NCBI GenBank assembly: GCA_036630325.1
Contig: CP142729.1
Span: 1,054,001-1,118,000 of the forward strand
DNA: 64,000 bases
DNA from: Vairimorpha necatrix
Taxonomy: Eukaryota
Direction of reading: 5' to 3'
Positions 2,884 through 53,689 of this stretch are shown in pieces. The notes beneath the pieces are model-generated. The model searched no databases and had not been told where the DNA came from. It worked only from the letters and a program-made list of their open reading frames with translations. The position numbers and the translations under genes are program-made. Every line of letters begins with the position of its first letter. Positions within the stretch are counted from its first letter, which is position 1.

Positions 2884-3009
2884 TTAACAAAAATTTTTAC
2901 GAACAAAGATCGGATTTTAATTCTACATAAAAACTTTTTTAATTATTTACTTATTTTGAATAAAATCAAACTGTATGAAGCATTGGTTAAATATAAGAAG
3001 AAGAACATC

Positions 3010-3259
3010 TGTTCGTAATTATATTTGTGACTCTGGATATTTAAGGACAAAAAAAATAATATTTGTTTAAACTTCAACATATTGATTATTTACCTTTTCT
3101 CCTTAGACATACCCTTTGAATATAAAACCCTCTTAATAAAAGGAATTTGTTAAAAATTTGTCAAAAATTTACATTACTGAGAATGAGTTTTATGTTTATT
3201 AGTTCATATGTTTTAAAAAGATATACTCTGACAGGAAGAGTTTAAAAAATTAATGTATG
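3010..3259. repeat. Dispersed direct repeat, copy 2; ends at an LTR insertion
   Basis: Colinear with 16-263. Confidence 0.85.
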
Positions 3260-16637: not shown

Positions 16638-16652
16638 ATCTTCAAGAAACTT

Positions 16653-26348: not shown

Positions 26349-26349
26349 C

Positions 26350-27138
26350 TTTTTTTTTCTTGCAAGTAAAAGGTAGGAGAAACCTTACATGGGGACCAGA
26401 GGGATTTGGGTGTGATTCTCATCCAACTGGTACTGTGAGATTCTTACTCACTAAAACTCCCTCCATACAACTTGCCGGTGCAGCAAGCTCTGCCGTATTC
26501 ATTGGACTTTGGCTCCGGGAGAACACTTTCCATCTATACCTCAAATCGCGTCCAGAGTGACCTCACAGCGGATATACTTAACGGGCATGGTTATCTATAA
26601 CCCGAGGAGAGACATCATCGTACTGACTCAAAGGACCAAACAATCATCCGTATTGCACACACGGCTCCTTACACGACCACATCACCAGCCCGGCGTTTTT
26701 ATTGGGCTGCGTTGACCACCAGTCTCCCACTAGTTTCGGCACCGTGTTACAAAATCATGTAGGATAGGGACCACGAGACCTTCTATTGCCCTACTTCGTC
26801 TAGTCTCTTAGTTGGCTCCAGGATCCCACTCTAGAGTGCACCAGCCATGGGCTCCAACTAGGCCGTACCCATTAGATACTTTTATGTATCATTAAGTCAC
26901 CAAAGAGTGATACTGCTTTTTGGCCTTGAGGTGCGTTTCTACACTAGATGCTAATCCCCTTGTGGCTGGACACACACAAGTTTCATTGAATCAACTTAAT
27001 GATTATCGTGGACATTTTCATCATCTGAGTTGTTCCAACTGCATCATAGAAAGTAGAAACAATTTTGGTGCCCCTGGGAATCGAACCCAGCCATTGCTCA
27101 ATGGAAGCATTGCATTCAACCACTGTGCTAAGGGCACC
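26350..27138 (-). mobile_element. tRNA-derived SINE, best-preserved copy (~790 bp)
   Basis: tRNA-like head 27066-27138 with A box TAGCACAGTGG and B box GGTTCGATTCC; GC-rich body; A-tail at 26350; three other copies in the window. Confidence 0.9.
27066..27138 (-). ncRNA. tRNA-like cloverleaf / Pol III promoter heading the SINE (probably not a functional tRNA)
   Basis: Acceptor stem GGTGCCC/GGGCACC+A, T-stem CTGGG/CCCAG with TTCGATT loop, anticodon loop TCCATTG (C33 and T37 non-canonical). Confidence 0.8.
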
Positions 27139-32172: not shown

Positions 32173-33597
32173 GTCACGAGATTCTCGGCTTCTTCTTGTT
32201 CGAATTTCCTTTTGTCTAGACTCAAGGGTAATTTCGTTCACATACAACTTTAGGTACCGTTAGTGTATTTAGTGTTCCACTGTTGTTCTCGTTCCTTTGT
32301 GCTTAGATTCTCGTGTCTTATAATGGTCTATGAGCTTAGTAGTAAAGTTTGCTTCACTTTAGGGTTCTCATCAAAAGTTGATAGTTTAGTTCGCCTCGTG
32401 CTCAACGAAAAGTGGAGTTAATAATTTATTTTATATATCTATTGTCTGGCTTTATGATCTATTTTGACCCTGTGTATTATCATAAAGTCGCGGCATAAGA
32501 ATAATGCTATCATTCAGTGTTGGTATTACAAGCAATGTTATCTTGAATCGTTACCCACTGTTATTGCTTTTCGCTTCCAATGAATCGTTTATTACAGTAC
32601 TGTAAATTGCAGTTCAGAGTGTGAATCCTTTAACCTTACTTAGTTCCTCTCTGCTAACTAAGTTTTCAACAAAAAATGAGATAGATGCACCTGAATCATA
32701 AAGTTTCTGACTACGTCGCCAAAAAGATCCTTCGACCGTAGTGAAATTTGTGTATCTCAATATAGGTTCTGCTTCAACTAATGACACATTCTATCCTTCT
32801 TGTTTCTTGCAGTCCTTAAATAAGTGCTCACCTCTGAACTTGTAGCATACTAGCTTTCTTGGACTCTCATTCGTCCTTGTGGTATCTGTTCTTAAAGTCC
32901 TCATTTCATTTGGCCTACTTTGTTCAATTCACTGCTTTAAACTTTTGGATAAGTTTATGACTTCCCTCATAAATCTTTAAAAAAACGTCCCATGACGTTG
33001 CCTCTTCCATCTTTTCATTGAGTGATGGTAAAAAGGTCTATCCAGTTCCCTAATGATTCCCGACATGCTGATCATTGCTTTCTTGTTTAGCTTTACTAGG
33101 ATATAAATGAAGTCATCAATCCTCAAATCTTTGGGTCCGGGGTATAGTTTCTTGTAAAGCATTCTAGTATGGTTGGTTCCTTCCTGGAACTCTTCTTTCC
33201 CATACTTTCTTCCAAATATTTGTTTTTAATTTCATGGATTCTTTAACCTCGTCTTCAATCATTCTTCATACCTTCGGAGAGCTGATTCCCCTAGGTATCC
33301 CTATGTACAATTCAGTAATTTTATATCACTTCATTCTCCATCGAGGTATTTGAATTGAATAATTCGAATCCATGCATTCTTGCTTTGGGTTGCAATAAAT
33401 TTCACCATATGTTAGTCGATCTTCCTAACTTTTCTATTAGATGGCCCAATTCGTTAATTTCTAATAGTTGTGCCACTGTTACCTGAAGGAGAGCTGGTTA
33501 TTTAAGAAGGCATTAAATTTAAACTTGGGCTATATTTTATTAGAATATTTATTCTAGTAAAGATCATTTAAATAGTTTTAGTTTTGGATCTGTAACA
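32173..33597 (-). mobile_element. Truncated Ty3/Gypsy element (LTR-gag-protease), cut at the hAT
   Basis: LTR 33477-33597 (TGTTAC...GTAACA) followed by GTGGCACAAC; decayed knuckle CYKFRGEHLFKDC; protease YDSGAS. Confidence 0.7.
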
Positions 33598-33635
33598 AGT
33601 ATGTTTCAAATAATTATCTTTGTTTCAGAATATAG

Positions 33636-36600
33636 TTTGATATATTTGTATAATTTCTATCCCCCATTATGATAAATAAAGACATGGGGGCGATACCGAA
33701 TCGTCAATTTACAAGTGTGGACTGTGGTCTGAAGGCCAAAAAGCTATTAAAGGAAGTTAGAAGAATCATGTATAGGTTAGAGATGGAGGAAGTAGAATCC
33801 AGTTTGTGGAAACAGAGAATATTTATGGAAGGAAGTGAAGAAATAAAAAATTTCATGGTAGAAAGAATTAGTAAAGAGGACAAATATTATAAAATAATTG
33901 AGAAATTAGAGGAGGAAATATGTAGAGAAGAAAGAACTAAAAAAAAAGAAGAAGAAAATAGGAGAGAACTTATGGAGGTCATAGCCGAGAATGTTAGAGA
34001 AACTGTGAGAAAAGAAATTCAAGAGAAAGATTTAGTTTTAAGGAGTACAGTACAAGAAATAAGAAATAATAGGAATTGTTTTAATTGTGGTAAATTTGGC
34101 CATATGGCTAGGAACTGCTATGTAGGAAGGAACAATAATCAGGAAAATAATAAAAAGTTTAATAAGTACTAAAATTTAGACGAAAACCAAAGTTGTAGTA
34201 GCAGTAATGATAATAAATGATATAAACCAAGTGGAAAGACAAAATGAGTTAAGTTAAAGGAATGTAGTAATAGTGATAGAAGACAGAAAGAATATATGTT
34301 TGCAATAAAGAGACGAAAAGAAGATTACTCAAGAGGGAATTTACGTTGGAAGATCTAAAAGCGAAATATGAAGAAGTTTTTAAACAAGGAGATGAGGTTA
34401 TAAGTTATTGTACATTAGAGAAGTGTAAGAAAGATACTCCAGAGGGTAAGAAGATAGTCAGAAAGGGACAGACGATCCCACAGGCTTTTATAAAACAGAA
34501 AGAAGAATATAATCATGATTTAGAAAATAGAAAGATTATAAGAAGATCGTCATCTTAATTAACAAAACTCAATAAGAGCGATACTTAACCCCAAGGTATA
34601 GTAAGAGTAGTTAGTAACTTTATAAATTGAATGATTTAGTCGAGAAAGACCCGTATGAGCTAACGAATATGAGAGAAATAATAATAGCTACGCAAGGGTC
34701 GATAATATTTACTGTTGTTGATTGCAAAGAAGCATTTTACCATTTTGAAATCGAAGAAAAAGATAAACATAAGACGGCGTTTGAATTTAATAAAAAAGTT
34801 TACGAATGGAATAGTATGGTAATGGGATACAAAAATTCCCCACAGATACTACAGCGAACGATTAATAAGATTTTTGAGGATTTGCGAGGAAATGGTGTGG
34901 AGGTATTCATGGACGATATAGTAATACATGCTAACAATTAACGTAAACACGATATACTAGTTTTAGAGGTTTTAGAAAGAATTAGGAGATTAAATGAAAT
35001 TAAATAGTGGGAAAATACAGTTTAGACAAGCAGAAGTAAAACTATTAGTGTGACGCGGAATGGAACAGACATGACGGCCGACGAAATAAAAAAAATGATG
35101 CCTTGGAGTATCCAGATCCCAAAACTTTGACGGAATTGAGGAGATTCTAGGATTGACTGGATGGTTCAGACCATTTATGAAAGATTATGCCGGGTTGACG
35201 TTGAAAATGACAGATAGTTTGATGAAAAATGGCAATTTATGGAAATTAACGGAAGAGATGAAAGCGGAATTCACTGAAATGAAAAATGTGTTACGAAATA
35301 TGGGAAGATTAAGATTGCCGGACTATAATAAGGAGTTCATACTAAGAACAGACGCTAGCAATTTGAAATTGAGTGCGGTGTTACTTCAGAAGAATGAGAA
35401 TGGAGAATGGGTTGCTATACAATGGGCATCTAAAAAGTTAACACCGACAGAAGTAAGATATGGTACATCAGAAAAGGAAATGCTTGCGATATATTGGGCC
35501 ATTGATAAATTTAAATACGAGTTAAGAGGTAGGAAATTCAAGATATAAACGGATCACAAAGCACTGGTGGAGATAAGAAATAAACCGTTTTTTAATAATA
35601 ACAGAATAAATCGCTTAATCGAGAAGATACAGGAATATGATTTTATCGTGGAATATAAAAAACCTGATGAGATGATGGTAGCAGATGCGTTGAGTCGAAT
35701 AAATATGGAAGAGGATATTAAATAAATGAAAAATAAAGAGCGAACAATCAAGCAAACAGAAGGTAAATGGAAAGCAATATTGGCAATTTGACTCAGGACG
35801 TAAAGTTGAAATACCACCTGAGAATATAAGGAGACAATTAATCCAAGAATATCATGAAAAAGTAGGCCACAGATGCATGACAAGTGTTTATTATGCAATG
35901 AGAGAAGAATACTATTGGCCAGGAGTAAAAAAAGAAATAAACGAGGTTATAAAACAGTGTCAGAATTGTCAGATATATAACAGGAAAAATATGGGTGGTT
36001 GTGAATTTGTAGATACGTCGAGATACTTAGAGAAGGTTGCATTAGATTTGATAGACTTTAGAAATGAGAAGAAATATGTTTTAGTTGCTATCGATTATTT
36101 TACACGAAGAGTATGGGGAGTAGTTGTAAATAACAAGTCAAGTAATAATGTTGTTGGATTTTTAAAAAAATTATGTGAGCAAGGGAGGAAATCGGAAGAA
36201 ATTATTACAGATAACGGCAAAGAGTTTATTAACGTGGAATTTAGAAAATTTTGTAGAGATCTGGATATAATACACCGACAAGTAAGTATAGAAGCGCATA
36301 TAAGTAACGGAAGAGTAGGGCGTGTCATAGGAACTTTGAGAGAAAATATTTTAAAGTCGGATGCGAAAACCTTTGAATGTAAGTTGTATAAAAGTATCGA
36401 GATATATAATCAGAGCTATCATACAGGAATAAAATGTACACCAATAGAAGCGACTGAAGATAAAATTGGTGACGTAATGCTTGAAAATAGCCACATAAGG
36501 AAATATTGTAATAGGTTTAGAAAAAGGAAAAATTGAAAAATTTAGTAAAAGTCAATTGGTAAGAATAGCTAAACGAGAAAATTTGGCAGGTTTTAATAAG

Positions 36601-36822
36601 TATGAAAAACGAAAGATTTTTTGATACAGGGAATATTGTTGAAAAGTGTGGAAAAGATTCTTATATTGTAAAACTTAGTAATGGTAGGCTTGTGAAGAAG
36701 AGACATTATGACCCGAAGAGTATGCTTGGGGTAGATGTGAAAATTGGATGAGACTAACCGTCTTGAGGGGGGATGTGATATATTTGTATAATTTCTATCC
36801 CCCATTATGATAAATAAAGACA
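33636..36822 (+). mobile_element. Full-length Ty3/Gypsy element, 3187 bp, 49-bp LTRs, no protease; ORF disrupted
   Basis: LTRs 33636-33684 and 36774-36822 differ at 1 base; TSD tatag/tataa; PPT gagggggga; knuckle CFNCGKFGHMARNC; RT FMDD; RNase H TDAS; integrase ITDNGKEF. Confidence 0.93.
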
Positions 36823-37148
36823 TATAATTTAAGTTGGATTATTGGCGTAGACAACAAAGCCGGTAACAGAGTTTATGTTTTTTTCGTTATTTTTAATATA
36901 TAAATCAGAAGTTATGTGACATTTACATGCGTCATAAAAAATTATTCAAAAGAGCCGAAAGATAAAAATACTTTTTTTACTATAGTCTCGTTTCAATTCA
37001 CATTTATTATTATTTAGTAGCAATTAGGAGTTTGTTTTAAATATAAAGGGAATTCATGAATAAATATTAATGGTAAATAAAGTAAACAATGATCATAGAA
37101 TTCTTTTATTATAGATGATACTAAAAGTATTTTGGTATTGAATGTTTC

Positions 37149-40100
37149 TGTTACAGGATGATAATCTAGTTACTGAGATTATCCTGTAATTACTTTATTG
37201 TAGATACTTACCCAAAGTATCTACTGTAAAATATTTACTATAAATAATAAATAAATATTTTACCCATCTAAAAATATTATGAAAAGGAAGGAGAAACTTT
37301 ATTTAACAAATGGCGACAACGAAGATGATAAGGAACCAGTAGAGAAACAAAAGACAAGGAATACAGTGGAGATGTTAGAAAAACAATTAGCTGCAATGAA
37401 GATCAACATCAGGGGTACATACAACTTCAGAAAATTTGATGGTAAAAGGACGGAAGCAGAAGAGTTCTTACTACAATTTAAACCATTTAGAGAATCTTGG
37501 ACTGAAGAAGAATATTTTGGTTTTGTAGAAACTAATCTCACTGGAAAAGCCCGACTCTGGTTTGAAGGCTCAAGATATAATGTGTTTGAAAGTGTAGTCG
37601 AGTTTGAACAACATTTCTTAGAATACTTCAGTCCCGAAGAAGTTTCTGGCAACAGTAAATTGTTGAATATACTATTACATAAGAAGCTGAGAGAATGTAA
37701 TAACGAGATATTATGGTTAGAAATTTACTCGATACACAAAAACATTACTATACCACTAAAAGATGTTATTAATACGGTAGTTATGAATATACCAGTTGGG
37801 AATGCAAATCGATACAGGGATTGTAAGAGTTGGATGGCAGTTTTGAAATTGGCAGTTAAGATAGATTCTGAGAATGAGAGTAAAGAACAATCTAAGATGC
37901 AAATTAGCAAGAATAAATCGGAAGATGCGAGAAGTAGTTTTCAAAAGAAATTGATTAGCTGTTATAATTGCAAAGGTCAACATTATAGAAGTAATTGTCC
38001 AGAACTATTAAAGAACAAATCGAACAATAAAATACAAACCAATACGGGTAACAGAAATGATTATAAGAAGTGTTCAGATAAGAAACTGATGACATTAACA
38101 TGTAGTAGTAAAGCAGCCAATGTCCCTAGATTTTTGGTGAAAATTGGCGGAGGAAAAGTACCAGCACTACTAGACTATGGAGCTGACATTAATTATATTA
38201 GTTACGACCTGGTGAAGATGTTAAATATCCCAATAGATATGGAAAATAGAATTTCGGTCAATTTAGCAACTAGAAAAGATAGCTCGGTTGGCATGTTAAA
38301 AGCGTTATTGCGTGATAAAAATAATCAGCACGCATACGAAACAGAATTTGCGGTAATGGAAGATCTTAATGAAAATATACTCATCGGTAGCATAACAAGT
38401 AGACATTTAGGCATTAAAGTTCATTGGGAAGAAAATGAAATTGAAATCTTTAATGATGGAACAAGGCTCAAATTGGAAACAGAAGAGTACAGTTTAAAAT
38501 CAGTAATAAGCGAGGAAATACCCATGGAAATAGAGGCATTAGAATGCAAGTTTGGTGAACATGAAGAAGTCAATAAAAATATTAAGTACTTACTGTATAA
38601 ATATATGAAAGAATCCGATAATAAGAAAGCCCTACCTTTTAGACATGATATTAAACTTAAAGATCAAAGTAAAACTATATGTTGTAAACCATATAGAAGA
38701 AATCCGCAACAGAATCTCATAATTAAAAATAAAATAGATGAGATGTTACAGAATGGATTGATACGAGAGAGCACGAGTAATTATGTTTCCCCTGTAGTGC
38801 TTGCACCTAAAAAAGACGGTGGTATGAGAATGTGTATTGACTATAGAAAGTTGAATGAAAACACAATCAGTACGCCATACCCGATCCCTCACATGGATGA
38901 AGCAATAGATGCTATCCAAGGGACAGATATGTACTCTACTTTAGATTTGGAGATGGGTTACCATCAGATCGAAATGAACCCAAGAGATATTCATAAAACT
39001 GCATTTATTGTAAAGCAAGGTGTATATGAATGGACTAAGATGCCATTTGGCTTAGTCAATGCCCCTTTTACGTTTCAGAAGATTATGAATTGGATATTTA
39101 AAGATATACTTTGGAGGAAAGTAGTTGTATACCTTGATGATATTTTAATATTCTCAAGAGGGAAAGACAAACATGTCGACGATGTGAGAGAAGTCCTGGA
39201 AATTTTGTCAAAATTTGGACTCAGACTTAACATGAAGAAATGTGCATTCGCAGTGAGTAAAATTGATTTTTTAGGACACACTGTAGAGAATGGAGAACTT
39301 AAAATTAAATCGGACCAATTGGATAAGGTTAACACCCTAGAAAATCCAAAGAACGTCAGCGACTTAAGAAAACTTTTAGGATTTATAGTATATTTTAAAC
39401 GATTTATACCATCATATACCATGAAGGCTATGCCGTTATTAAAAAGGTTAAAGAAAGGTAATTTTATATTTGGAGACGAAGAAGAAAAGGCTTTAGAGCT
39501 CCTGAAACAAGAAATATTAAATGCCAAACCTTTACTTTTACCAGATATGAATAAGACATTTTATTTATATACGGATGCCTCAGACATTGGAATTGCGGGA
39601 GTACTTACACAATTTACAGATACGGGAAAAGAAATGCCTATAACCTGGATAAGTAGAACGCTAAATAGCGCCGAAATTAATTACACTACAACTGAGAAAG
39701 AGTGTTTAGCTATTGTATGGTCTATTGAAAAACTTAAAGTATATTTGTTTAACAATTTTATCATCAGGACAGATCATAGTTCCTTAATATGGTTAATGAA
39801 ACAGAAAACACCTATAGGAAGATTGGCAAGATGGATAATGAAACTGCAAAACTATAAATATGAAATCGAACATATAAAAGGTTCAGATAACGTTTTGGCT
39901 GATGTACTTTCACGTGGTGTATTAGAAAATAGCCAATTAAGAAAGTGTCAAACAGTGGTTAAAAATGAAGAAAGAATAAATGTTGAAGAAGACAATGAAA
40001 CAATAATAAAACTGATACAGAGAGCACACTTAGAGCTTGGCCATGGAGGTATAGATTCTACTATAATGTACATCAGAAATATTGCGAGTGTACCAAATAT

Positions 40101-41216
40101 AAGAAACAGAGTAGTTGAATACATTCGTAACTGTGAAACTTGTAGAAGATTTAGAGACAAGACGTTGCAAAATAATATTAGACGTGTGGAAATAAAAAGT
40201 TCGTTCTATATGATTGGGTTGGATATAGTTGGTCCTTTACCCCCAACAGACGGTGGAAATAAATTTATTCTGGTAGGAACAGACTACCTAACTAAATGGG
40301 CAGAAGTGAGAGCTTTAAAAAGAAAAGATGCGGAATCTGTAGCGAAATTTATTTATGAAGAATTTTTATTGAGACATGGACCTCCGGAAGTAATCTTGAC
40401 TGATCAAGGACTTGAGTTTAACAATAAAATCATAAAGAAACTGTGTTTAATGATAAATACTAGAAAGTCGTTTACAAGCGCCTACCATCCAAGATGTAAT
40501 GGACAAACGGAGAGACTAAACCGTACACTTATTGCAAGGTTGGCTAAGATATGCAATGGAAGATGGTCAGAGTGGGATATGTTCCTACCAATCGCGCTAT
40601 ACGCATATAGGATAACACCACTAATAAAATTCAAGAGTAGTCCTTTTAGATTGTTATATGGGAGAGAGCCTAAGGATATAACTACGGAGAAAGAAGATGG
40701 TGGAGCAGCATTTATAGAAGAAAACGATACACTTAAGAAGATCGATTTGTTACGGAAAAAGTTACACGAAAAGGTTATAGAAGATAGAAATAGAGACATA
40801 CAACGCGCGAATGATAGAGTTAAAGGCAAAAATATTCAAGTAGGAGATGCGGTTATGAAGAAAAAGGAATCATTTGAAAAACTGAATAAGCTTGATGATA
40901 AATGGACAGGACCTTATCTGGTAAGAAGAAAGTTTGACTCTGGTGGTTTCGAGATCGAGGACATGTATGGAAAACTATTTCGGTATAATGAAAAAGACTT
41001 ACAACTAATTGAGAATTCAGATCCCACGGATTGGGAGAGTTTAAAGAAAGGGAGTATGTTACAGGATGATAATCTAGTTACTGAGATTATCCTGTAATTA
41101 CTTTATTGTAGATACTTACCCAAAGTATCTACTGTAAAATATTTACTATAAATAATAAATAAATATTTTACCCATCTAAAAATATTATGAAAAGGAAGGA
41201 GAAACTTTATTTAACA
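37149..41216 (+). mobile_element. Intact Ty3/Gypsy LTR retrotransposon with identical 160-bp LTRs
   Basis: LTRs 37149-37308 and 41057-41216 (TG..CA); TSD GTTTC; PBS-like TGGCGACAAC; PPT aaagaaagggag. Confidence 0.97.
37279..41097 (+). CDS. Single-ORF Gag-Pol polyprotein (gag, CCHC, PR, RT, RNase H, IN)
   Basis: CYNCKGQHYRSNC; LLDYGAD; YLDD; TDASD; HHCC motif with D..TDQG..E; GPY. Starts in the 5' LTR and stops in the 3' LTR. Confidence 0.95.
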   Translation: MKRKEKLYLTNGDNEDDKEPVEKQKTRNTVEMLEKQLAAMKINIRGTYNFRKFDGKRTEAEEFLLQFKPFRESWTEEEYFGFVETNLTGKARLWFEGSRYNVFESVVEFEQHFLEYFSPEEVSGNSKLLNILLHKKLRECNNEILWLEIYSIHKNITIPLKDVINTVVMNIPVGNANRYRDCKSWMAVLKLAVKIDSENESKEQSKMQISKNKSEDARSSFQKKLISCYNCKGQHYRSNCPELLKNKSNNKIQTNTGNRNDYKKCSDKKLMTLTCSSKAANVPRFLVKIGGGKVPALLDYGADINYISYDLVKMLNIPIDMENRISVNLATRKDSSVGMLKALLRDKNNQHAYETEFAVMEDLNENILIGSITSRHLGIKVHWEENEIEIFNDGTRLKLETEEYSLKSVISEEIPMEIEALECKFGEHEEVNKNIKYLLYKYMKESDNKKALPFRHDIKLKDQSKTICCKPYRRNPQQNLIIKNKIDEMLQNGLIRESTSNYVSPVVLAPKKDGGMRMCIDYRKLNENTISTPYPIPHMDEAIDAIQGTDMYSTLDLEMGYHQIEMNPRDIHKTAFIVKQGVYEWTKMPFGLVNAPFTFQKIMNWIFKDILWRKVVVYLDDILIFSRGKDKHVDDVREVLEILSKFGLRLNMKKCAFAVSKIDFLGHTVENGELKIKSDQLDKVNTLENPKNVSDLRKLLGFIVYFKRFIPSYTMKAMPLLKRLKKGNFIFGDEEEKALELLKQEILNAKPLLLPDMNKTFYLYTDASDIGIAGVLTQFTDTGKEMPITWISRTLNSAEINYTTTEKECLAIVWSIEKLKVYLFNNFIIRTDHSSLIWLMKQKTPIGRLARWIMKLQNYKYEIEHIKGSDNVLADVLSRGVLENSQLRKCQTVVKNEERINVEEDNETIIKLIQRAHLELGHGGIDSTIMYIRNIASVPNIRNRVVEYIRNCETCRRFRDKTLQNNIRRVEIKSSFYMIGLDIVGPLPPTDGGNKFILVGTDYLTKWAEVRALKRKDAESVAKFIYEEFLLRHGPPEVILTDQGLEFNNKIIKKLCLMINTRKSFTSAYHPRCNGQTERLNRTLIARLAKICNGRWSEWDMFLPIALYAYRITPLIKFKSSPFRLLYGREPKDITTEKEDGGAAFIEENDTLKKIDLLRKKLHEKVIEDRNRDIQRANDRVKGKNIQVGDAVMKKKESFEKLNKLDDKWTGPYLVRRKFDSGGFEIEDMYGKLFRYNEKDLQLIENSDPTDWESLKKGSMLQDDNLVTEIIL

Positions 41217-41323
41217 GTTTCTAAAATAAGATATAAAATAATATTGATTTTAATGATAATATTTCATTTTTTAATTTTGATATTAAAAACAAAATATATA
41301 ATTGAACTATATTTAATCAAGTT

Positions 41324-44300
41324 TGTTGATATTTTTATATTTTTATATTTTTATTACCCCAATTTTTAAGATGAGTAAGGAAGTGGAGGAGAAGAATCTC
41401 ATAAATAAAATGGTGGAGAATATGAAAACAAAGCCAGTTGAAACTACCATCAAAAAGGAAAATTTGATGAGTGAATGTAGAAGGTTAGAAAATATGACCT
41501 TCTTCAGAGAAATGTGCGATGAGAGGAAAATCGAATATTTGATTGGAAGAGCTGACTACTTTATAGTAGATTGGCACCATGAGTTGATGGACACTAAAAG
41601 GAGGTGTTCGTTGGATTACGAAAAATGGAAAGAGTTGGCTAGAACCGAATTTGAAAAGAAAAGGCTTACTATAGGGGAGTTATATCGCATGGTACAACAA
41701 GATGAAGAAACTATACCAACGTTTATAGAAAGAGTTAGAGATTCAGCCAGAGAGTACAAACTTGCAAAAAAGGAAATCATTGATATAATTACAGCTGGAC
41801 TTAAAACAGGAATGGGCGATGTAAAAAGATTTTTATTGGCAAATAGTGATATTACAGATGAAAATCTAGAGACAATCAAGAAATTGGAAAGTGAGTGTAC
41901 AGCTGAATTACACCGAATTAATGATTTAAAATTGATGATTGAAAAAATTGATACTCTTAAATTTCAGGGCAAGAAAACAGTTAAATGTTACAACTGTAAT
42001 AGCTTAGGCCATTATGCTAGAGATTGTCGAAAGCCAAAGAGAAGTGAAAATCTTAGGAGAAACATTAATGAAATTACTGAAGAACTTAGAGATTTATTAA
42101 ATAAAGAAAATTCAGTTTACATTTGTGGAGAGAAGGTTCCAGTATTGTTTGATACAGGTGCAAATTATAATTTTATAAGTAGTGCTAGTGTAGCAAGATT
42201 CAACCTTTTAACACATAATAACACAAGGAAATTAAGATTTTGGACATGTTTGGAAGAATCATTTGTGATAAAAAGACATGTTATATTAAATTATACATAT
42301 AAAGGACATTTATATAGATCAAAGTTTTATATATTGCCAAAAGTACGAACTGAAAAAATCCTATTTGGTAGAGAAACATTAATTAGACTTAATAATATTG
42401 AGAAACTGAGTTATACATGTGAAATCAAAACACCTGAAGGCTCAAAAGTGATCGAAAAGATATATAATTTACCAAAGAAATTGGAAGCAGGAATTGAAAT
42501 TGCTATTAATAAATTATTAGAAAAGGGATATATACAAAACTCAAAATCAACGTGGGTTAGTAATTTGAGACCCGTGATAAAGCCAGATGGCACTGTAAGG
42601 GTTACAACCAATTTAATAGCACTTAATAGGTTGGTAGAACAGGATAATTATTCTTTACCAAGAATAGATGAAATCCTTTGTAATTTAAGAGACATGACAG
42701 TATTTTCTAAATTGGATTTGAAGGATGGATTTTTTCAAATTCCATTGGCACCGAAAGATAGATATAAAACGGCATTCAGATATAAACATAAATTATATGA
42801 GTGGAAAGTAATGCCACAGGGGTTTAAGAATGCTCCAGCAATATTTCAACGAAAAATGGATAAAGTTTTGAGAGATGAAATTGGTAAAAGTTGTTTCTGC
42901 TACGTAGATGATATTCTAATATTTGGAAAAACTGCAAAAGAGCATGACGAATCATATAATAGAATTCGAAAACTTTTACTAGAAAATGGTCTCAAAATCA
43001 ATGAGGAAAAGTGTGTATTTAGACAATCCGAAGTTCTATTCCTGGGATACAAAATTAAACACAACATCATTATTCCGCTCATAGATAAGATGCAAGCTAT
43101 TGAGGATTTAAAACCACCTAAGGACAAAAAACAGATTCAAGAATTTTTAGGTGCCATAAACTATTATAGAAAATTCATTAAAAACTGTTCAATTGTATGT
43201 GGTCCTTTGTATGAATTATTGAAAAATAAGAAAGAATTCAAATGGACGAATATAGAAGAGAACGCTTTTAAAGAAGTTAAAAGAATTTTTATTAATACGG
43301 TAGGACTATTTCAGCCAGATTGGTCAAAAGAATTTAAACTAGAGACCGACGCTTCAAATGAAGGTATAGCTGCAATACTCTCGCAAAATTTTGATGGAGA
43401 TGAAAAACCAATTGCATTTGCATCGAGAAGGTTATTAGAACATGAGATTAAATATAGTATCAGCGAAAAGGAATGTCTGGCCATGTTATGGGCAATGGAA
43501 CACTTTCGATATTTTTTATACGGTACACATTTTGAAATTATCACAGATCATAAAGCGTTAGAAGCATTAAATAAGGGTCAAATTAAGTCTCTGAGAATAC
43601 AAAGATGGCTAGATAGAATGTCATTGTTTAATTTTAGAATTAGATATAGACGAGGTAAAGAAATTCCTCACGTGGATTGCCTAAGTCGAAATTCTGGATT
43701 GGCAACAAACGACAAGAGATTAAATTTACACGAAGGATCGATAAATCAATGTGAAGAAATGGACGAAAAGAAAATGCTTCAGATGATTCGCGAAATTCAT
43801 AATGAGTTACTTCACCGTGGGATACAATCAGTAAAATATGAGATGTATAAAAGAGGTATTAATATAAAAAATTCACAAAAATTGATTAGAAAAATTATAG
43901 ATTCGTGTGAAACATGCAACGAGTACAATTCTAAAAAATCTAAACAACACATATTTGTTACCTCGTATGCAAAGGGAGAAAAAATTGCTATAGATATAAT
44001 AGGTCCAATAAACACACAATACATTATAACTGGGATTGATTATTTTACGAGAAAAGGATTTGCTAAAGTGATAAATAAGAGAAAAGATGAAAATGTAGTT
44101 AACTTTCTAAAAGAAATAAGTTCATCTATGCCTTTGAAGACATTGATCCTGGATCAATCGAAAGAAAATCTCAGTAGTAAGGTAAAAATGTTTTGCCAAG
44201 CAAATAAAATAGAATTACATTATACCACACCTTTCCATCACCAGTCAAATGGGCGTGTAGAAAGGTTTAATCGTACTTTACAAGATTTAATTTATAAAAA

Positions 44301-44778
44301 TAAAAAGGAAAAATTACTTACTGAAAAGGTTAACAGAGGAATAGAGATATACAATAATAGCTATCATTCGGCTACGAGGATGACGCCAAATGAAGCTTTC
44401 TCGTTAGAAAATACGGATGAATTAAAAAATGTACAAATTAAGAATATTGTTGCATATAATACAGCCCAAATGAGGAAACCAAAAGAAATTAAATTAAATA
44501 TGGGCGATATAGTAATTATCAAAGAAGAAGGAATAATAAAGAAGGGACAACCTAGATTTAAATTAAGGGGTAAAATTCATAAATGTTTAGAGGGTAATAC
44601 GTACATGATAGACACCGGTAAAAGAAAGTTTAAAAGGCATATATCTCAACTCAAACTTGTCATTGATGACCCCATCCTTTAAGCGGAGGGATGTTGATAT
44701 TTTTATATTTTTATATTTTTATTACCCCAATTTTTAAGATGAGTAAGGAAGTGGAGGAGAAGAATCTCATAAATAAAA
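41324..44778 (+). mobile_element. Intact Ty3/Gypsy LTR retrotransposon, 3455 bp, identical 87-bp LTRs
   Basis: LTRs 41324-41410 and 44692-44778 (TG..AA); TSD AAGTT; PBS TGGTGGAGAAT; PPT aagcggaggga. Confidence 0.97.
41371..44682 (+). CDS. Single-ORF Gag-Pol polyprotein
   Basis: Likely start is the ATG at 41371, after CCCC inside the LTR; CYNCNSLGHYARDC; LFDTGA; YVDD; TDAS; HHCC motif; ILDQSKE..NGRVERFN. Confidence 0.93.
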   Translation: MSKEVEEKNLINKMVENMKTKPVETTIKKENLMSECRRLENMTFFREMCDERKIEYLIGRADYFIVDWHHELMDTKRRCSLDYEKWKELARTEFEKKRLTIGELYRMVQQDEETIPTFIERVRDSAREYKLAKKEIIDIITAGLKTGMGDVKRFLLANSDITDENLETIKKLESECTAELHRINDLKLMIEKIDTLKFQGKKTVKCYNCNSLGHYARDCRKPKRSENLRRNINEITEELRDLLNKENSVYICGEKVPVLFDTGANYNFISSASVARFNLLTHNNTRKLRFWTCLEESFVIKRHVILNYTYKGHLYRSKFYILPKVRTEKILFGRETLIRLNNIEKLSYTCEIKTPEGSKVIEKIYNLPKKLEAGIEIAINKLLEKGYIQNSKSTWVSNLRPVIKPDGTVRVTTNLIALNRLVEQDNYSLPRIDEILCNLRDMTVFSKLDLKDGFFQIPLAPKDRYKTAFRYKHKLYEWKVMPQGFKNAPAIFQRKMDKVLRDEIGKSCFCYVDDILIFGKTAKEHDESYNRIRKLLLENGLKINEEKCVFRQSEVLFLGYKIKHNIIIPLIDKMQAIEDLKPPKDKKQIQEFLGAINYYRKFIKNCSIVCGPLYELLKNKKEFKWTNIEENAFKEVKRIFINTVGLFQPDWSKEFKLETDASNEGIAAILSQNFDGDEKPIAFASRRLLEHEIKYSISEKECLAMLWAMEHFRYFLYGTHFEIITDHKALEALNKGQIKSLRIQRWLDRMSLFNFRIRYRRGKEIPHVDCLSRNSGLATNDKRLNLHEGSINQCEEMDEKKMLQMIREIHNELLHRGIQSVKYEMYKRGINIKNSQKLIRKIIDSCETCNEYNSKKSKQHIFVTSYAKGEKIAIDIIGPINTQYIITGIDYFTRKGFAKVINKRKDENVVNFLKEISSSMPLKTLILDQSKENLSSKVKMFCQANKIELHYTTPFHHQSNGRVERFNRTLQDLIYKNKKEKLLTEKVNRGIEIYNNSYHSATRMTPNEAFSLENTDELKNVQIKNIVAYNTAQMRKPKEIKLNMGDIVIIKEEGIIKKGQPRFKLRGKIHKCLEGNTYMIDTGKRKFKRHISQLKLVIDDPIL

Positions 44779-44851: not shown

Positions 44852-45556
44852 TTTTTTTTTCTTTGCAAGTAAAGATAGGGAGATACCTTACATAAACACC
44901 AGTATATGTTGTTGTCTGATATTTAACTAACTGTTACTGTGAAATCTTATTCACAAAATCTCCCTCCTTATAACTTGTTAAGGTTAAACTTCGCCCGTAA
45001 ATGTTGACTAAAGCCATAGAATAATTTTCCATCTATACCCCAATTTGTATCCGGATTGACCTCATAAGAAAAATATTTATGGGAATTGTTTTAATACCCC
45101 GAAAAGCGACATCATTATATAAGTTCAAAGGCCTACAATTATTTTCTATCGCATTCATAACAACTTTAACAAACGGAGCTGTCGTTTTTATTGGACTACG
45201 TTGGGCGCTATTCTGCTGGCAGTTTAGATATCGTGTTACAGAATTCTGTAAAGTAGTGTCACAGGAATTTTTTATTTTTCTACTTAGTCCAGTCTCTCAA
45301 TAAGATCTGGGTTCATACGCCGAGTGTATCAGTCATAAGCTTGAACTAGACCGCTTTAAACTGTTTTTTTATTTATAATAATCATCTCAAAGAAATTTTT
45401 GCCTTTAAATACATCTTTACACTCGATAAGAATCCCAGCATGGCAGAACTATCACAAATATATTAAATTAACTATATTTAATTGGCAACATAAAAGCATC
45501 GAATTATTTTTATTCGCATCATAGAAAGTAGAAACTTTTCTACACCTCTGGGATTC
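44852..45556 (-). mobile_element. tRNA-derived SINE, AT-eroded copy with most of the head lost
   Basis: Colinear with 26350-27080 (ttgcaagtaaa..ccttacat, ttccatctatacc, gtttttattgg.ct.cgttg, gcatcatagaaagtagaaac). Confidence 0.85.
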
Positions 45557-46872: not shown

Positions 46873-49800
46873 TGTCGTGATCAGTACAGGGGCCACAAAA
46901 TATAATACAATTGTCGCAAGATGATTGGCCAATTAAAATATATAATTTCATGCTGTAAAGAGGGACGGAAAATATTAATAAAAGGTTTAAAGACATGGCG
47001 ACAACGACCAACAACATTAACTTTCTCGCAGGGAACCAGATGGGGGTATAAATTTCTGGAACAGAGATATTGTATCTTGGGTGAAGTGGCAGAATGGTCT
47101 AAAAAAGATTTAAAGAGTGCTTTTTTATGAAAGATGAAAGGAACGGCTTTGTCTTGGGCTTCACAAGTTTTAAGAGGAAAAATGTGGCCCTATTGGAATA
47201 CAATAACTGATTTCTATATTGAAAAAAAGGGTTGGATCTAATAAAAATAATGATATATCACTTAGTAGACTTTTGGAAAATCCACGCCCGAGACCAGGGA
47301 GGACTATTCAAAGATGTTGTATGAAGCAACAATTATATTTGAAAGACACTTAATTAACTTTACAGCTTTATGCCAGATGTTAATAAACAAATCGTTTATA
47401 TAAATTAAAGGATACTTTTAGGCAACTTCTAATGTGGAAACTTGGGAAGATTTCATTCAGAGAGCTGAAGAAATGGCATGGATACCATATCCAAATAAAA
47501 TTCTATTTAGGGTCAAAGTAAGACAGATAAAACTATAAAAAATAACAAAAATTTTGGCAGAAGGCCATACAACTATATAAATTTTAACATAAACCCAAAT
47601 AACAAGAGAAATTACGGCAGAAGGCCAAATAACCGCAAATATTGCATGTTACATGATGAAGGATCTCTTTTTACAAAAGAATGTTTTAGACTCACTAAAA
47701 TGTTAGAAAATGAACGTAAAAGAATCCCGATAAAGAAAGTTAATATTAATTGGAAACAAATTGAAAAGGATAATTACGATTTGGACAATAAAGACAGTTA
47801 GAAACTTGTTTAAGAACATATACCGAAGTAACCCATTTTTCTCGAAGGTGTTCTATATAATAATTAAAGGAAAGTTCTTTTAGACAAGGAAGCAGACGTC
47901 TCGATAAGAGACCATAAAGACATACCATCACATTTAAATAAACAGCATATTAAATTACTCGGAAGCCGTTAAAGGACGGGAAATCAACCCTTAAACTTAA
48001 TAAGCCAAATAAAAAACTGTATTGTCAAGATAAATGGTAGAGATATTACGTTTTCTCCTCTTATAATAAAAAATACAAAATATATAATTATAGAATCAGA
48101 GGTTATCAAAAAACACAGAATTAATTATTGAATTAATCAGAACATTTAAATTAGAACATAGAAAACAAGTCTTACCCGTTATAGAGGAGAATGAGGCTCT
48201 TATTAAGGAAGAATATAAGGATTTATTTAAAACAAGGATAAGCGAATTTAATCTTTATGCTGCAGGAAAACACACATTGCAAACAAATAATAATAAAAGA
48301 AACTGTCAGAGAAATGGCAGGATCCTTATTGCACTAAAGGAGTTAATAGAAACTGAAATAAATAATTTGTTAAAGTTGGGAATTATTTGCGATAGTAAAA
48401 GCCCATGGCGTAACAAGAAATGGTCCCGAAGCCAGATAAAACTTGGAGTATGTAGATAGATTATAGAGGATTAAATGCAATCACCATTAAGGATTCATAT
48501 ATGTCTCCAAGGATCGACGAGATCTTTGGCCGTGTTGCAGTGGCATCGATTTTCACTGTGTTAGACGCTACGTGTGGATACCGACAATTGCTCGTGGAAG
48601 AAGAAGATAAAATGAAGACAGCGTTCTTATTTAAAGGAAGACTTTATGAATACAATAGAATTCCCTTCGGACTATGCAATGCTCCTGCCACCTTTCAAAG
48701 AGCCATGGACAATATTTTTAGAATGGAAAACAGAAAATTTGAAATACCATACCTAGATGAAATAATTTAAACTCTAGAACGAAAGTGGAACACAACTTAC
48801 ACGTAAAAATAGTATTAGGAAAAATAAAAGCTTCAGATTATTATTTTACTTAAAAAAATGTAAATTCTACAGGAATGAAATCAAAATACAAGGAAATTAT
48901 ATTCGGAATGGATGCATTAAAGTAGACCCAGATAAAATCAGTTACATTCGAATGTACTCAATTCCACCATCTATTAAAAAGAGCTCAGAGGTTCTTGAGA
49001 ACAATTAATTTGTGTAAGGACTTAGTGAAGGAGATTTAATCGCTTACTAGTCCATTATATGACATACCTAGGGGAAGAGACAAAACTCGAGTAAAAAAAT
49101 CTCACTTACTGAAGATAAATTGGCTGCTTTTAATAGAACTAAACGCCAAATGGAAAAAAAAACTTGACAACTCAACAGAATTTTAAAAGGATTTTTATAC
49201 TTATGACAGATGTCTCAGAATCGGGTATTGGAGCAGTGTTACTTCAAGAGAATGATTATGGAGAAGTTTAAATGATGTCACATTTTAAAAGATTGAACAT
49301 TTGTCAAAAAAATAATTCAATGACGGATAAAGAATTATTTTTGTTAAGGTTATTGACCACTTTAGACATTACTTATTAGAAAAAAAGTTTATACTTAAAA
49401 CAAACTAGAAAGCTCTCATATACACAATGAGCACAAAAGACCTTTCTAGTAGACTACTCAGGTGGTCCTTAAAACTCGCAGAATACAACTTGAATTGATA
49501 CATATAAAAGAGGAAAACAACATTGCTGATGGATTTAATAGGGTTTATAAGAGTGAAGAAATAAATACATTAACGCCAAAGAACTGGACAACAAAGATAA
49601 AGAGGACATAATAACAGAATACCATAGGATTTCCGGACATGGGTCAGGTAACACAATGAAGTTTACGATTTCCCAAAACTTTAATTGGAAAGGAATGTAT
49701 AAGAATGTAGAAATTTTTGCTCAAAATGTAGTATCTGTCTAAGAGCAGGTGGATTGGAGGTTAAAACAAAAAATAAAATAATCTGCACAGATAAGCCAAA

Positions 49801-50717
49801 CGAATTGTAGGAAATTAAGCAAATTGGCAGAATGTATGAAATCTCGGGTTCAAAATATGTTTTTGTAGCGATAGAATATTACACGAAATGAATAGAAACA
49901 AAAATAATTAAGAATAAAACAGGGCACGAAATATACAAAGCTATCGAAGAACTAATTTAAAAAAACATATAATTTCAGATAGAATTTAGACGGACATTGG
50001 GTTCGAGTTCAACAATAAAAAAGTGCTATCACTCCAAAATAAATACAATATCAAGTGGAAATTTGGGTCCCCATACCATCACCAAACAACAGGAGCAGTG
50101 GAATGAGTAAGCAGACTCTAAAAACGTAATAAGACGGTTATCTTGCTTTGGAGAATTAGATTGGAACCATTTTTAAAGGAAGCAACACTAGCGGTTAATT
50201 TGTATTCAACCGCGCAATAGGAACATTTCCATACATAGTGAAACATGAACACAAACTAATGACAGAATTAGATAAGAGATTAAATATCAAGCTGCAAATG
50301 TATTCAAAACAATATCTCTTAGAAAAGGAAGAAAAAAATTTAATTGAATATAAAAAAAAGCATATTCAAGGGGCATAAAGACGTAAAACCAAAATTTGAT
50401 ATCGGGGAACGCGTGATCATTTTTAGAGATATTTCAGGCAAAGATAAATTAAGCTCCAAATGGACACATGGCCATAAGATATCTGAAATAATCAGCAAAT
50501 ATGCATATATGGTAAAAAGAACCGATAACAACGGAGAATTAAGGGTAAATAAATGTCATATAAAACGGGATACATCTCAAATTAGTTGAGGGGATGTCGT
50601 GGCCAGTACAGGGGCCACAAAATATGGTCAGTTGTTGCAAGATAATTAGTCAATTAAAATATATAATTTCATGCTAGAAAGAGGGGATGGAAAATATTAA
50701 TAAACAATTTAACGACA
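46873..50717 (+). mobile_element. Degenerate full-length Ty3/Gypsy element with 123-bp diverged LTRs
   Basis: LTRs 46873-46995 and 50595-50717; TGGCGACAACGA follows the 5' LTR; PPT gagggga; RT fragment PFGLCNAPATFQR..YLDE; many stops. Confidence 0.9.
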
Positions 50718-50720
50718 GAT

Positions 50721-50864
50721 AGGATACGGCGGAGTTTGATACCACCAAGTTACATGATGGAAGTTTTAGTGAGTAATGATCATATAGTATCAAATGAAAA
50801 GGGAACATTCCTGTCTCTGGTCCTTAGTAAGGAATCTCGCTACCTTTTACTTGCAAATAAAAAA
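50721..50864 (+). mobile_element. SINE 3' tail fragment
   Basis: atacggcggag..gttttagtgagtaa..ctctggtcc..ctaccttttacttgcaaataaaaaa matches the SINE tail. Confidence 0.8.
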
Positions 50865-53689
50865 TGTATTAAAGTTGTTACAGTCATTATAGTGTATAAT
50901 TTTCGTTCTTTTAGTCATACGATGGCAGGATAGAGTAAAACAGGTCTCAAACATAGAACTTTTTTTTGTAGTACAAAATGCAAACATTTTCGTCAGATTT
51001 ATCTTACTTATTAAGCCGATTAGTTGATAGTAATTTCTTATGATGAATAAATACCAATTATAAATAGTTTTATTAGGGAAGAAGTGCTAAACCATTATAA
51101 ATTATTACTATACTATGTAAAAAACATATGAATACACATAAGAGATATAACAGACTAAAAAGTTGTTTTATTTAGCATTGAGTTAATGAATTATAAATAT
51201 TAAACAACTATTTTATAATATAATCGTCAGTGCAGTGCATAATGTCTCTATAAAACAAACTACCGTTACAAAACTACATATATAAAGTTCATAGAGATTA
51301 TTAAATTTAATTACGTTTACTTATGAATTTTGAAGAAATAAAAATAGAGACGATTGATTATGATTATAAGATATGTAATGTTTAAAAACAATGCTAAACA
51401 TGAAGATTTAAAACTATTTTGATGGTCTAATCGGTGTACTGAACTCAGATATCTTCTATTCTAATAGCTCATAATTTTAATCAAAAGTGTCAAAAACATC
51501 GAGGGTTGAAAAAGTTGACGTTGACATTTGTGTATATGTGTGACAATAAAGAGTTTATGCCATCTAAAGTACATCATTATTACATAATTATACAACTCTA
51601 CCAAACATTATTTACTTTTTATTAGAATTGAACAGCTGTTACTTTTTTTGAAGAAATTGTTTATGTCACTGTGACGAGTTTGATGGGAACGTTGTTTGCC
51701 AAATTTACTATATATGACCCATGCCAAACAAAAAGTACAGATAAATATTAATACACAAGCTAAGAGGTAAATCGATATTTGTATATGAAGAATCAAACAC
51801 AAGATTTTTTTTTTGATCTTGTTTGTATAAATATTTTTTTTTACTCCTCCCCCTAAATAATTACCATGGTTTGAAGTTATTTTAAATTTGTTATGAATTT
51901 CGTGGTCCGATACAAGTTGTACTTTCGCGAAATTCCCACCATTTTTACCTTAAAAAAGATGGGGATTTCATGTAGATGTATGAACATGGGTTTAATATCA
52001 TATTTTAGTGGTGTGTAAAATTATGAAAAATGGTTTTTTTCATTGATAAACAGTACATTTGCCCATTTGTATAAATGCAGCAAATATTTGCAATCTATTT
52101 CGTTGCAGCAATTTTCTTTTCTGCTCCTAAATTGAAATTTTTCCCCCTTTGAAACCACCACTAATTGAATTGATATTTAGTTCAAGAAGCGCGCTCAAGT
52201 CTTCTACTAAATTCAATGATGGGCGTTGAACACTCTGAATGTGCCATAGAGCACATACTGCTTAGCAGATGTATAGCCTCCTTATTGTTTTTTTTTGTTT
52301 CTTTTTCTGTTAGTTTGCTCTTCTGTGGTAGTGATTCTACCCGCTTTCGCTATTTATTTAATTTATATTCACCTTCCGTACAAAAATAAAATTCGTTTTT
52401 TATACAAAATTTATTACACTCAAAAAATTCATATTTTCTTTTTTACTAATTTTAATAGTTCACGATAACTACATTATTTAATTAAACATACAATTCCAAC
52501 CTTTGTAGATTAACTTCTTCCACAATATAACCTTGAGCTATAGACAGAATATGCTAAATTATAGTGTGTTTTAGATTACTATTGTTATAAAAGAATTTTA
52601 CGCTATAGATATTCATTTAAGTACCTAAACAGTACTTGGAGTTTTTATCTGCATACAAAACTTGTTTTATTTGTTTGAGACGAAGCAATGATTTGCATAT
52701 TTATTTTTACCATCTTTAAAAAAATATTATTAATAATTCACTTTTAATATTTATAAATTCTTTGAGAGTCTATTACATGGATTTCAGAAGTAACTCCGGA
52801 AACTGTCAGAAGAGATTGTAAGCGTATCTTGGGAAAATTCATTAGTAAGTAGATATTATATGATATCCGAATAATGTTTTTTTAATATAATAAAAAAACA
52901 TCATATTTCTCTCTTAAATTTTTCAAGTAAGGAATTATTAAAACCAAAATAACTTATTGTAATGATGTTTCTTGTTTATATGTTATATATTTTGGCCAAC
53001 CATACAACAAACATATGGGGGTTTCAGAACACATAGCCTAATTAATCCATTTCCTTTAACTATGATATCCGGTTGGAGGTAGCGGAATTTTACAAGAAGA
53101 ATCTATGATATGAAAATTCACATTATTTATAATGATCAAATCTATGTCACGAAACACAAGAGGACTTATATCTTTGTAATTATACATGAAGGCATGGCCA
53201 GGCTGCATGCTCGGGGCTAAAATAAGCTATAAGGTACTTGAGTTATTGAAAAATACCAGCTAAATAAGAAGTGAACAAGGAATTAAGGTAAAAAATTATG
53301 CAGAGATAGCAAGAAAAGATTATACATATTATAAAAAAGTATTTGGAACTTAATATCAGAGCCATTTGATAAATATGCGATGATTAAAGTCTACAGAATG
53401 ATACTAATAATATATAGTATTTTATAAAAATAGTAATCAAATAATTAAATTTCAGTAAATCATTTAAAGTATATGCATGAGCATCGAATCCTAATAGATC
53501 ACATCTTTATACTTTAGTTATTGATGATGTTAAAAACGAGAATAAAATACTTTATTTGGATATAATATTAAAAACTTACTTACTAATTACTTTTCACAAG
53601 ATACGCTTACATTCTCTTGGACAGTTTTCGAAGTCTCTTCTAGAATCTACACAATGGACTCTCAAATACTCCTTCCTGTTCAGTATCAA

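Follow-up and report, generated by a model that had tools for sequence, protein, structure and literature searches.

The retrotransposons Ty1 and Ty2 of Saccharomyces cerevisiae (Pseudoviridae) are described as starting gag within the 5' long terminal repeat (LTR) and reading it through the LTR end, also in a compact host genome, and in the account of PMC4974528 the primer-binding site (PBS) of Ty1 lies within the GAG open reading frame (ORF). Here we analyse a stretch of 64,000 nucleotides of the Vairimorpha necatrix contig CP142729.1 (positions 1,054,001 to 1,118,000 of the forward strand; "the window" below), which contains in total seven Ty3/gypsy elements, A to G, with probable gag starts inside much smaller LTRs. 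The LTR of Ty1 is about 330 bp long with a leader of about 50 nt, and that of the silkworm element mag is about 77 bp. The window LTRs measure 38-160 bp, their leader is probably a few nucleotides long, the polyadenylation signal AATAAA would itself be coding, and the pol stop codon is read within the 3' LTR in B and in a relative from another assembly, L125. Ty1 is also from another superfamily, that with the copia order of domains, and a frameshift links its two ORFs, whereas the intact window elements B and C have a single ORF. That gag can start in the LTR is in principle already known, and the window layout is an extreme form of the Ty1-type arrangement.

Within the phylum, Ty3/gypsy elements with gag and pol in one ORF and forming microsporidia-specific clades are already known (Parisot et al. 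2014, PMC4202319; also PMC13174016). As described there, the elements of Parisot et al. share phylum, superfamily and single ORF with the window elements, and the main-text passages of that paper on LTR, promoter, polyprotein and transcription give no LTR length, start-codon position or coding PBS, although its supplement may hold lengths. In Anncaliia algerae, a GGG motif was reported before the start codon of a POL polyprotein that was detected by proteomics (Panek et al. 2014, PMC4072689), so that, as in the window elements, a host-type motif stands directly upstream of the start of a transposable-element polyprotein. In the relevant passages of that paper the motif was read as domestication of one transposable element; it was not placed in an LTR, and neither PBS nor poly(A) signal was mentioned. 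In the window the motif is inside the LTR and regular in seven families, unlike the single A. algerae case. The host-type motif itself is known from Encephalitozoon cuniculi: in the data from rapid amplification of cDNA ends reported in PMC2803860, its mRNAs use AAUAAA, their 5' untranslated regions (UTRs) are shorter than 7 nt, and immediately before these stands a CCC-like or GGG-like motif.

The elements were found by tblastn over the 64-kb window with the two intact polyproteins (B and C) as queries, which gave seven matches, all retained; LTR limits were taken from direct-repeat searches and direct reading of the sequence. A, B and C lie within the interval flagged by the initial annotation, 33636-44778. 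The features are as follows (PPT, polypurine tract).

33636-33684, plus strand: A, 5' LTR of 49 bp, with CCCCC at 33661-65, ATG at 33669-71, AATAAA at 33675-80 and final A at 33684
33685-33701, plus strand: A, PBS, starting TGG and read as gag codons; junction ATG at 33684-33686
33669-34172, plus strand: A, gag ORF of 167 aa with a CCHC zinc knuckle, opened by the LTR ATG
36774-36822, plus strand: A, 3' LTR, abutted by a G-rich PPT (36765-36773) and identical to the 5' LTR at 48/49 positions
37149-37308, plus strand: B, 5' LTR of 160 bp, with CCC at 37263-65 and ATG at 37279-81
37279-41097, plus strand: B, single gag-pol ORF of 1272 aa with protease (PR), reverse transcriptase (RT), RNaseH and integrase (IN), in that order
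41057-41216, plus strand: B, 3' LTR, 100% identical to the 5' LTR; the pol C-terminus is encoded in its first 38 nt
41324-41410, plus strand: C, 5' LTR of 87 bp, with CCCC at 41357-60, ATG at 41371-73 and AATAAA at 41404-09
41371-44682, plus strand: C, single gag-pol ORF of 1103 aa with CCHC, PR, RT, RNaseH and IN; junction ATG at 41410-12
41411, plus strand: C, start of a TGG-type PBS
44683-91 and 44692-44778, plus strand: C, PPT and 3' LTR, the latter 100% identical to the 5' LTR
14222-11079, minus strand: D, decayed, with a 5' LTR at 14222-14173 (50 bp) and a 3' LTR at 11126-11079 (48 bp)
25415 to ~26340, plus strand: E, truncated, with CCCC at 25437, ATG at 25446, LTR end at 25461, junction ATG at 25461-63 and gag ORF to 26078
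7920-3258, minus strand: F, decayed, with 38-bp LTRs, the 5' at 7920-7883 and the 3' at 3295-3258 (GGG, ATG, AATAAA, terminal ACA)
46873-50717, plus strand: G, decayed, with 123-bp LTRs at 46873-46995 and 50595-50717, ~87% identical

Judged by their domains, the elements are Ty3/gypsy (Metaviridae) LTR retrotransposons: the Pfam domains RVT_1, RT_RNaseH, Integrase_H2C2 and rve follow one another in this order in B and C, and zf-CCHC was found in A and C. LTR pairs were present in A, B, C, D, F and G, and the LTR start of E is uncertain. All LTRs begin with TG. Their last two bases are CA, mostly as part of ACA, except in C, where they are AA, and in the decayed 5' copy of F, where they are TA. 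A sequence starting with TGG stands 0-2 nt beyond every 5' LTR, and every 3' LTR in the window is abutted by a G-rich purine tract. Perfect 5-bp target-site duplications flank B (GTTTC, 37144-48 and 41217-21) and C (AAGTT, 41319-23 and 44779-83); that of A is imperfect (TATAG/TATAA, 4/5 matching), and none was recognisable at the LTR flanks of the decayed D, F and G. Because of the PPT, the TGG-type PBS, the TG..CA ends and the perfect duplications of B and C, the tiny LTRs are real and not truncated alignments. The pol stop codon stands 9-16 nt ahead of the 3' LTR, or within it in B and L125, and the coding share of the element reaches 93.9% in B and 95.9% in C. The pol regions of A (after gag, to 36773), D, F and G are interrupted by stops.

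The central observation concerns the start of gag. In all seven window families a CCC or GGG triplet is found within the LTR, 0-13 nt before the next ATG, and the frame opened by this ATG runs free of stops through the LTR end and the PBS into gag. The distance from the LTR ATG to the LTR/PBS junction is 15 nt in A, D and E, 18 in F, 30 in G and 39 in C, all multiples of three. In six of the seven families the last LTR base, A, and the TG of the PBS form a second ATG in the same frame. In B, whose ORF opens 30 nt ahead of the 5' LTR end and crosses the PBS (37311-37324), a 2-nt spacer shifts the junction ATG out of frame, while the LTR ATG stays in the gag frame and the next in-frame ATG is 31 codons downstream. 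AATAAA is read in the gag frame as AAT-AAA (Asn-Lys) in 6/7 families, 1-13 nt from the LTR end; that of B stands upstream of its CCC, and none follows its ATG. A, C, D, E and F have a single ATG per LTR, apart from a second one upstream of the CCCC in E; in G, GGGG immediately precedes the ATG of the 3' LTR, 30 nt from the junction, and out-of-frame ATGs stand upstream of the GGGG. A, D, E and F are colinear from an LTR-encoded M-x-N-K-x via the junction Met into gag.

The arrangement had been described in the initial annotation at six places (33661, 25437, 41371, the LTR at 11079, the LTR at 3258 and 37279), all of which we found to be as quoted, and the observation as such is confirmed at the sequence level. 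Its occurrence in several distinct families holds too, with seven in the window including G, which had gone unlisted. Two generalisations had to be narrowed, as both the Asn-Lys reading of AATAAA and the second in-frame ATG apply to every family except B. The LTR ATG was likewise claimed for the decayed elements, in which it is intact in the 3' LTR only: the 5' copy reads GTG in D and ACG in G, and F has no ATG there. The LTR pairs of D and G differ by substitutions only, and the differences in spacing between families are multiples of three.

We next compared these regularities with chance expectation and with host genes. CCC or GGG occurs up to 16 nt upstream of 284 of the 2370 ATGs in the window (12%) vs 7/7 LTR ATGs; AATAAA begins at 0.26% of positions, and stops make up 6.6% of triplets. 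When A, D and E are counted as one lineage, five independent ATG-junction spacings are left (A/D/E, F, G, C and B), and for all five to be both in frame and open the probability is about 2e-4, i.e. (1/3)^5 multiplied by a no-stop chance of 0.05. The LTR ATGs of the window families are thus in frame with gag more often than chance allows, whereas the opposite had been named in advance as grounds for rejecting the idea. The coincidental explanation, in which AT-rich open frames happen to reach upstream into an LTR with an ATG, can draw on the shortness of the stretches (5-13 codons at 6.6% stops per codon) and on frames that remain open 3-29 codons upstream of the LTR ATG, but it is highly improbable given this joint probability, a motif association of ~0.12^5 to 0.12^7 and the recurrence of the layout on contigs of another assembly, described below.

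Around the elements the window is AT-rich (GC 0.22-0.39 in 2-kb windows). It is by all indications microsporidian DNA, because its transketolase (TKL1, 55138-56979, minus strand) is nearest to those of Nosema granulosis (63% identity) and Encephalitozoon (57-58%); solely unnamed metagenome proteins, at up to 76% identity, were closer than Nosema. As had been claimed, the CCC-ATG arrangement is also present at the host genes TKL1 and TK, where CCC(C) stands 0-6 nt ahead of the ATG; the same was found at the Rep gene of a Helitron in the window, and the host gene M48 is without CCC(C) before its ATG. The Helitron occupies 15114-19418 on the minus strand: the Rep ORF (Helitron_like_N) is at 16653-19418, and an ORF for a helicase of the PIF1 type comes after it at 15114-16637. 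Before the Rep ATG stands CCCCCATT, a context shared with the LTR of A.

The PBS starts are common to unrelated families (B/G, E/F and C/L125). B and G, which belong to different families, have an identical 12-nt PBS start (37311-37322 and 46996-47007) that is translated in different frames, as N-G-D-N in B and as M-A-T-T in G, and E and F share a 14-nt start. Because B and G read the same PBS start in different frames, the PBS is best understood as a nucleic-acid signal overlaid with coding sequence. One contig of the DNA run X1 corresponds to A through the first 13 PBS bases (to 33697) and diverges thereafter, so that this contig has a loose end at 33697.

To look beyond the window, genome contigs were scanned with an alignment of C and the protein relatives nearest to it. 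This led to a locus (L081) on a 3727-bp AT-rich contig binned with a bacterial metagenome-assembled genome (G001), which had 41% identity to C over residues 27-1095. In this bin, short contigs rich in AT gave at least 34 matches to Ty3/gypsy polyproteins, evidently a contamination of the bacterial bin by eukaryotic (microsporidian-like) repeats. Complete LTR pairs were found on three of its contigs.

L125 (same contig as L081): LTR of 58 bp with CCC and no LTR ATG; the 1095-aa frame has its first ATG at the junction (A/TG)
L128: LTR of 75 bp, copies 100% identical; CCC directly before the ATG, AAT-AAA in frame, junction ATG 10 codons on and also in frame
L129: LTR of 176 bp; GGG before the ATG, AATAAA in frame and 19 nt from the LTR end, junction ATG 16 codons on

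The same layout holds on the unrelated contigs L128 and L129 of another assembly. L125 has the PBS start of C, both giving M-V-E-N, and its ORF stops 17 nt within the 3' LTR (3535-3552), much as the pol ORF of B stops 41 nt within its own (41057-41097). Since both ORFs run into the 3' LTR, the U3 end of the LTR (the part unique to the 3' end of the RNA) would also be coding in B and L125, with the PPT inside the ORF. The purine run of L125 is ~20 nt upstream of the 3' LTR, and those of L128 and L129 abut it. A further contig (L130) looks alike, but as it has no 3' LTR we regard it as probable at most. L132 and L149, in which the 3' LTR is cut off at the contig end, were set aside, as was L135, a circularly permuted contig in which the gag ATG is possibly downstream of a PBS.

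Among the protein relatives of C, which numbered 162,972 in an exhaustive HMMER search, the closest full-length ones begin MPYNN/MVES and MSCFN/MVES, where the slash precedes the putative junction Met. A Met followed by Gly, Ala, Val, Asp or Glu (M[GAVDE]) occurs within residues 2-22 in 6/12 relatives, picked by length and score, vs 12% of internal windows (P ~0.0015). For ten proteins we compared contig and ORF length: the contig exceeds the ORF by 83-430 nt in eight of the nine full-length ones and by 828 nt in the ninth, the tenth being a 684-aa fragment. The gag regions of B and C had no matches in word-index searches of proteins, and scans of viral contigs with B, C and A2 gave nothing or one uninformative locus (L124).

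As controls we used relatives on GC-richer eukaryotic contigs, L085 (LTR of 281 bp) and L119 (216 bp), in which gag begins 18 and 35 nt past the LTR end, respectively, in the conventional order. The initial annotation had contrasted the window elements with typical LTR elements, in which gag starts downstream of the PBS; the contrast was overstated in view of the Ty1 PBS. We rejected 80 generic Ty3/gypsy loci from a metagenome contig scan (GC 0.31-0.70) as controls, their terminal repeats being assembly overlaps or partial LTRs.

We consider it fairly probable, from the layout of the sequence, that these are single-ORF autonomous Ty3/gypsy elements whose LTRs have shrunk to hardly more than the integrase ends plus a host-type gene start and a gene end. 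Transcription would start just after the CCC or GGG motif, as at host genes, giving a genomic RNA almost without a leader. The transcription start site (TSS) should lie inside the LTR, because otherwise there would be no terminal redundancy for first-strand transfer, and in A, C, D, E and F the LTR ATG should be on the mRNA as its first AUG, because an ATG upstream of the TSS would have nothing keeping it in frame. Gag would initiate at the LTR ATG, or at the junction A/TG where the LTR ATG is absent, and the PBS would be translated. The last 15-45 nt of the LTR would be read as codons and at the same time provide the terminal redundancy (R), leaving hardly any or no separate U5, the part unique to the 5' end of the RNA. 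The cap-proximal AAUAAA would be skipped, and its 3' copy would direct polyadenylation at or just past the LTR end. Cleavage at or beyond the LTR end is likely because AATAAA is only 1-13 nt from that end (19 in L129), and a separate U5 may be absent. The initial annotation had proposed that the untranslated leader was lost and that R, U5 and PBS are all coding; the first ATG after the motif does lie in the LTR with a frame open through LTR end and PBS, but the part concerning U5 needs to be softened, as a separate U5 may not exist.

Such a scheme has parallels in the use of its signals. In HIV-type viruses the promoter-proximal AAUAAA is bypassed. In retroviruses and LTR elements with a short R, as proposed here, a short redundancy suffices, and of the two copies of AAUAAA, one at either end of the RNA, only the 3' one is used. 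However, R and U5 form an untranslated leader in those elements, whereas in the window elements they would be coding. An R of only 10-11 bp is documented, with 11 bp given for MMTV and ~10 bp for Sire in the data of PMC3601003.

Several observations weigh against this reading. First, independent lineages are few, since A, D, E and F are related families, and the 5' LTRs of D, F and G, which have no ATG, are those of dead copies and give no support. Second, the LTR-encoded extension is unconserved in length and sequence and absent from L125, and it may be dispensable. Third, the AATAAA of B and of L125 is upstream of the CCC motif, which misfits a simple order of promoter, ATG and poly(A) signal; either their R is very short or their poly(A) signal has gone unrecognised. 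In A, C, D and E, AATAAA is 1-4 nt from the LTR end; a signal so near the end implies cleavage in flanking DNA, which is unusual for LTR elements. The only tRNA gene of the window, tRNA-Met (27066-27138, minus strand), was considered as the primer and rejected, as only its first 5 nt would pair with the PBS of C. Finally, a Prp8 fragment used as a query in bin G001, to place the source organism of its repeats, gave no match with that query.

A different start of Gag is the most serious of the competing explanations, although we regard it as unlikely: translation could begin at the junction ATG or further downstream in all families, the LTR ATG being upstream of the TSS or merely a tolerated in-frame upstream AUG. 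The first ATG of L125, which has no LTR ATG, is indeed that of the junction; amino-acid conservation begins at the junction Met both in A/D/E/F and in C and its relatives P0121, P0126 and L125; the extension is variable (0-16 residues overall); and an LTR ending in CA followed by a TGG-type PBS makes an ATG automatically. On the other hand, nothing would account for an ATG upstream of the TSS being in frame and open throughout the lineages, and if the TSS of A, D, E and F were past the ATG, R and U5 together could not exceed 13-16 nt. The junction ATGs of C and G are 30-50 nt from CCC or GGG, beyond the length of host 5' UTRs as given in PMC2803860 (<7 nt). In B the junction ATG is out of frame, so that initiation would have to occur 31 codons on. 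Part of this alternative can be accommodated in the reading we prefer, with initiation in the LTR: since the length of the extension varies (0, 5 and 13 residues in the C lineage) and L125 has no LTR ATG, the comparison points to the junction Met as the conserved start, to which the LTR ATG would add a tolerated, variable N-terminal tail.

A conventional U3-R-U5 layout is more doubtful still. Here the TSS would be set by an AT-rich or TATA-like sequence far upstream, CCC/GGG would be incidental, and the LTR ATG would be the first AUG after a leader of tens of nucleotides. This concerns mainly the longer LTRs (B, G and L129). B could accommodate it, having a second CCC at LTR position 63, AATAAA at 98 and no ATG between positions 11 and 130, so that U3 (1-65), R and U5 could be laid out with the gag ATG in U5, as in Ty1; also, Metaviridae LTRs are said in PMC3601003 generally to keep AATAAA and an AT-rich promoter stretch. 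However, the LTRs of 38-58 bp (F, A, D and L125) are too short for such a leader, the triplet is found within 13 nt of the ATG in 7/7 families vs the 12% background, and the out-of-frame ATGs before the GGGG of G would become upstream AUGs in a long leader.

If the LTRs do combine a host-type gene start and a gene end, a broader and more tentative proposition follows, which we put at slightly less than an even chance. F, A, D and L125 (38-58 bp) would have the smallest functional LTRs of any autonomous LTR retrotransposon; their RNA would have practically no leader, and R, the PBS and any U5 would be translated; the gag start codon would straddle LTR and PBS in some lineages; and insertions would carry an outward promoter and ATG. 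Such a codon, proposed for L125 and for the Met conserved in A, C, D, E, F and G, would have the last LTR base as its A, and its TG, complementary to the universal CCA end of tRNAs, would be re-copied from the primer tRNA in each cycle. To our knowledge, the window LTRs are several-fold shorter than any described, and a literature search, with supplements and the original Nosema bombycis element paper outside its reach, found no 38-90-bp coding LTRs, no AATAAA used as codons and no PBS-spanning gag in Ty3/gypsy elements.

The consequences would be of several kinds. Within a few dozen bases, the promoter would overlap with the start codon, the poly(A) signal, the integrase ends and the homology needed for strand transfer, and the PBS would double as codons; such elements would show the degree of compaction open to an LTR retroelement where the genome is being strongly reduced in size. 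The 3' LTR of every insertion would be a complete host-type promoter and ATG facing the flanking DNA, and a 3' or solo LTR, as a portable unit of this kind, could affect neighbouring genes. The model also makes predictions on minimal R length and on translation from cap-proximal AUGs in microsporidia. Standard LTR finders have a default minimum LTR of about 100 bp; with such a minimum they would miss most of these elements, so that censuses of microsporidian transposable elements and gene annotation may be biased.

Depth summed over the run X1 contigs was 14-100 on the elements vs 2-3 in the flanks, a contrast that is not a measure of copy number but hints at multi-copy elements. Upstream of the 5' LTR of A (33417-33635) the depth was already high (bin mean 48 vs 3 in the bin before), and a variant at 33585 was present in four run X1 contigs; this flanking stretch, too, seems to exist in more than one copy in the genome.

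We also noticed other repeats in the window. A direct repeat of 250 bp (14-263 and 3009-3259, 86% identical) has one copy abutting the 3' LTR of F, and F may therefore lie within or next to a further repeated element. Short repeats of an unclassified family (26344-26474, 44852-44977 and 50815-50872, 77-84% identical) are found beside the truncated end of E, 74 nt past the 3' LTR of C and, inverted, ~100 nt past that of G. An inverted repeat of ~690 bp (2183-2857 and 26392-27078, 73% identical) overlaps with one copy the 3' 13 nt of the tRNA-Met gene. A MULE transposase ORF (21859-22875, minus strand) lies between inverted repeats of ~300 bp (21505-21811 and 23548-23851, 94% identical), which are made of 14-16-bp tandem units.

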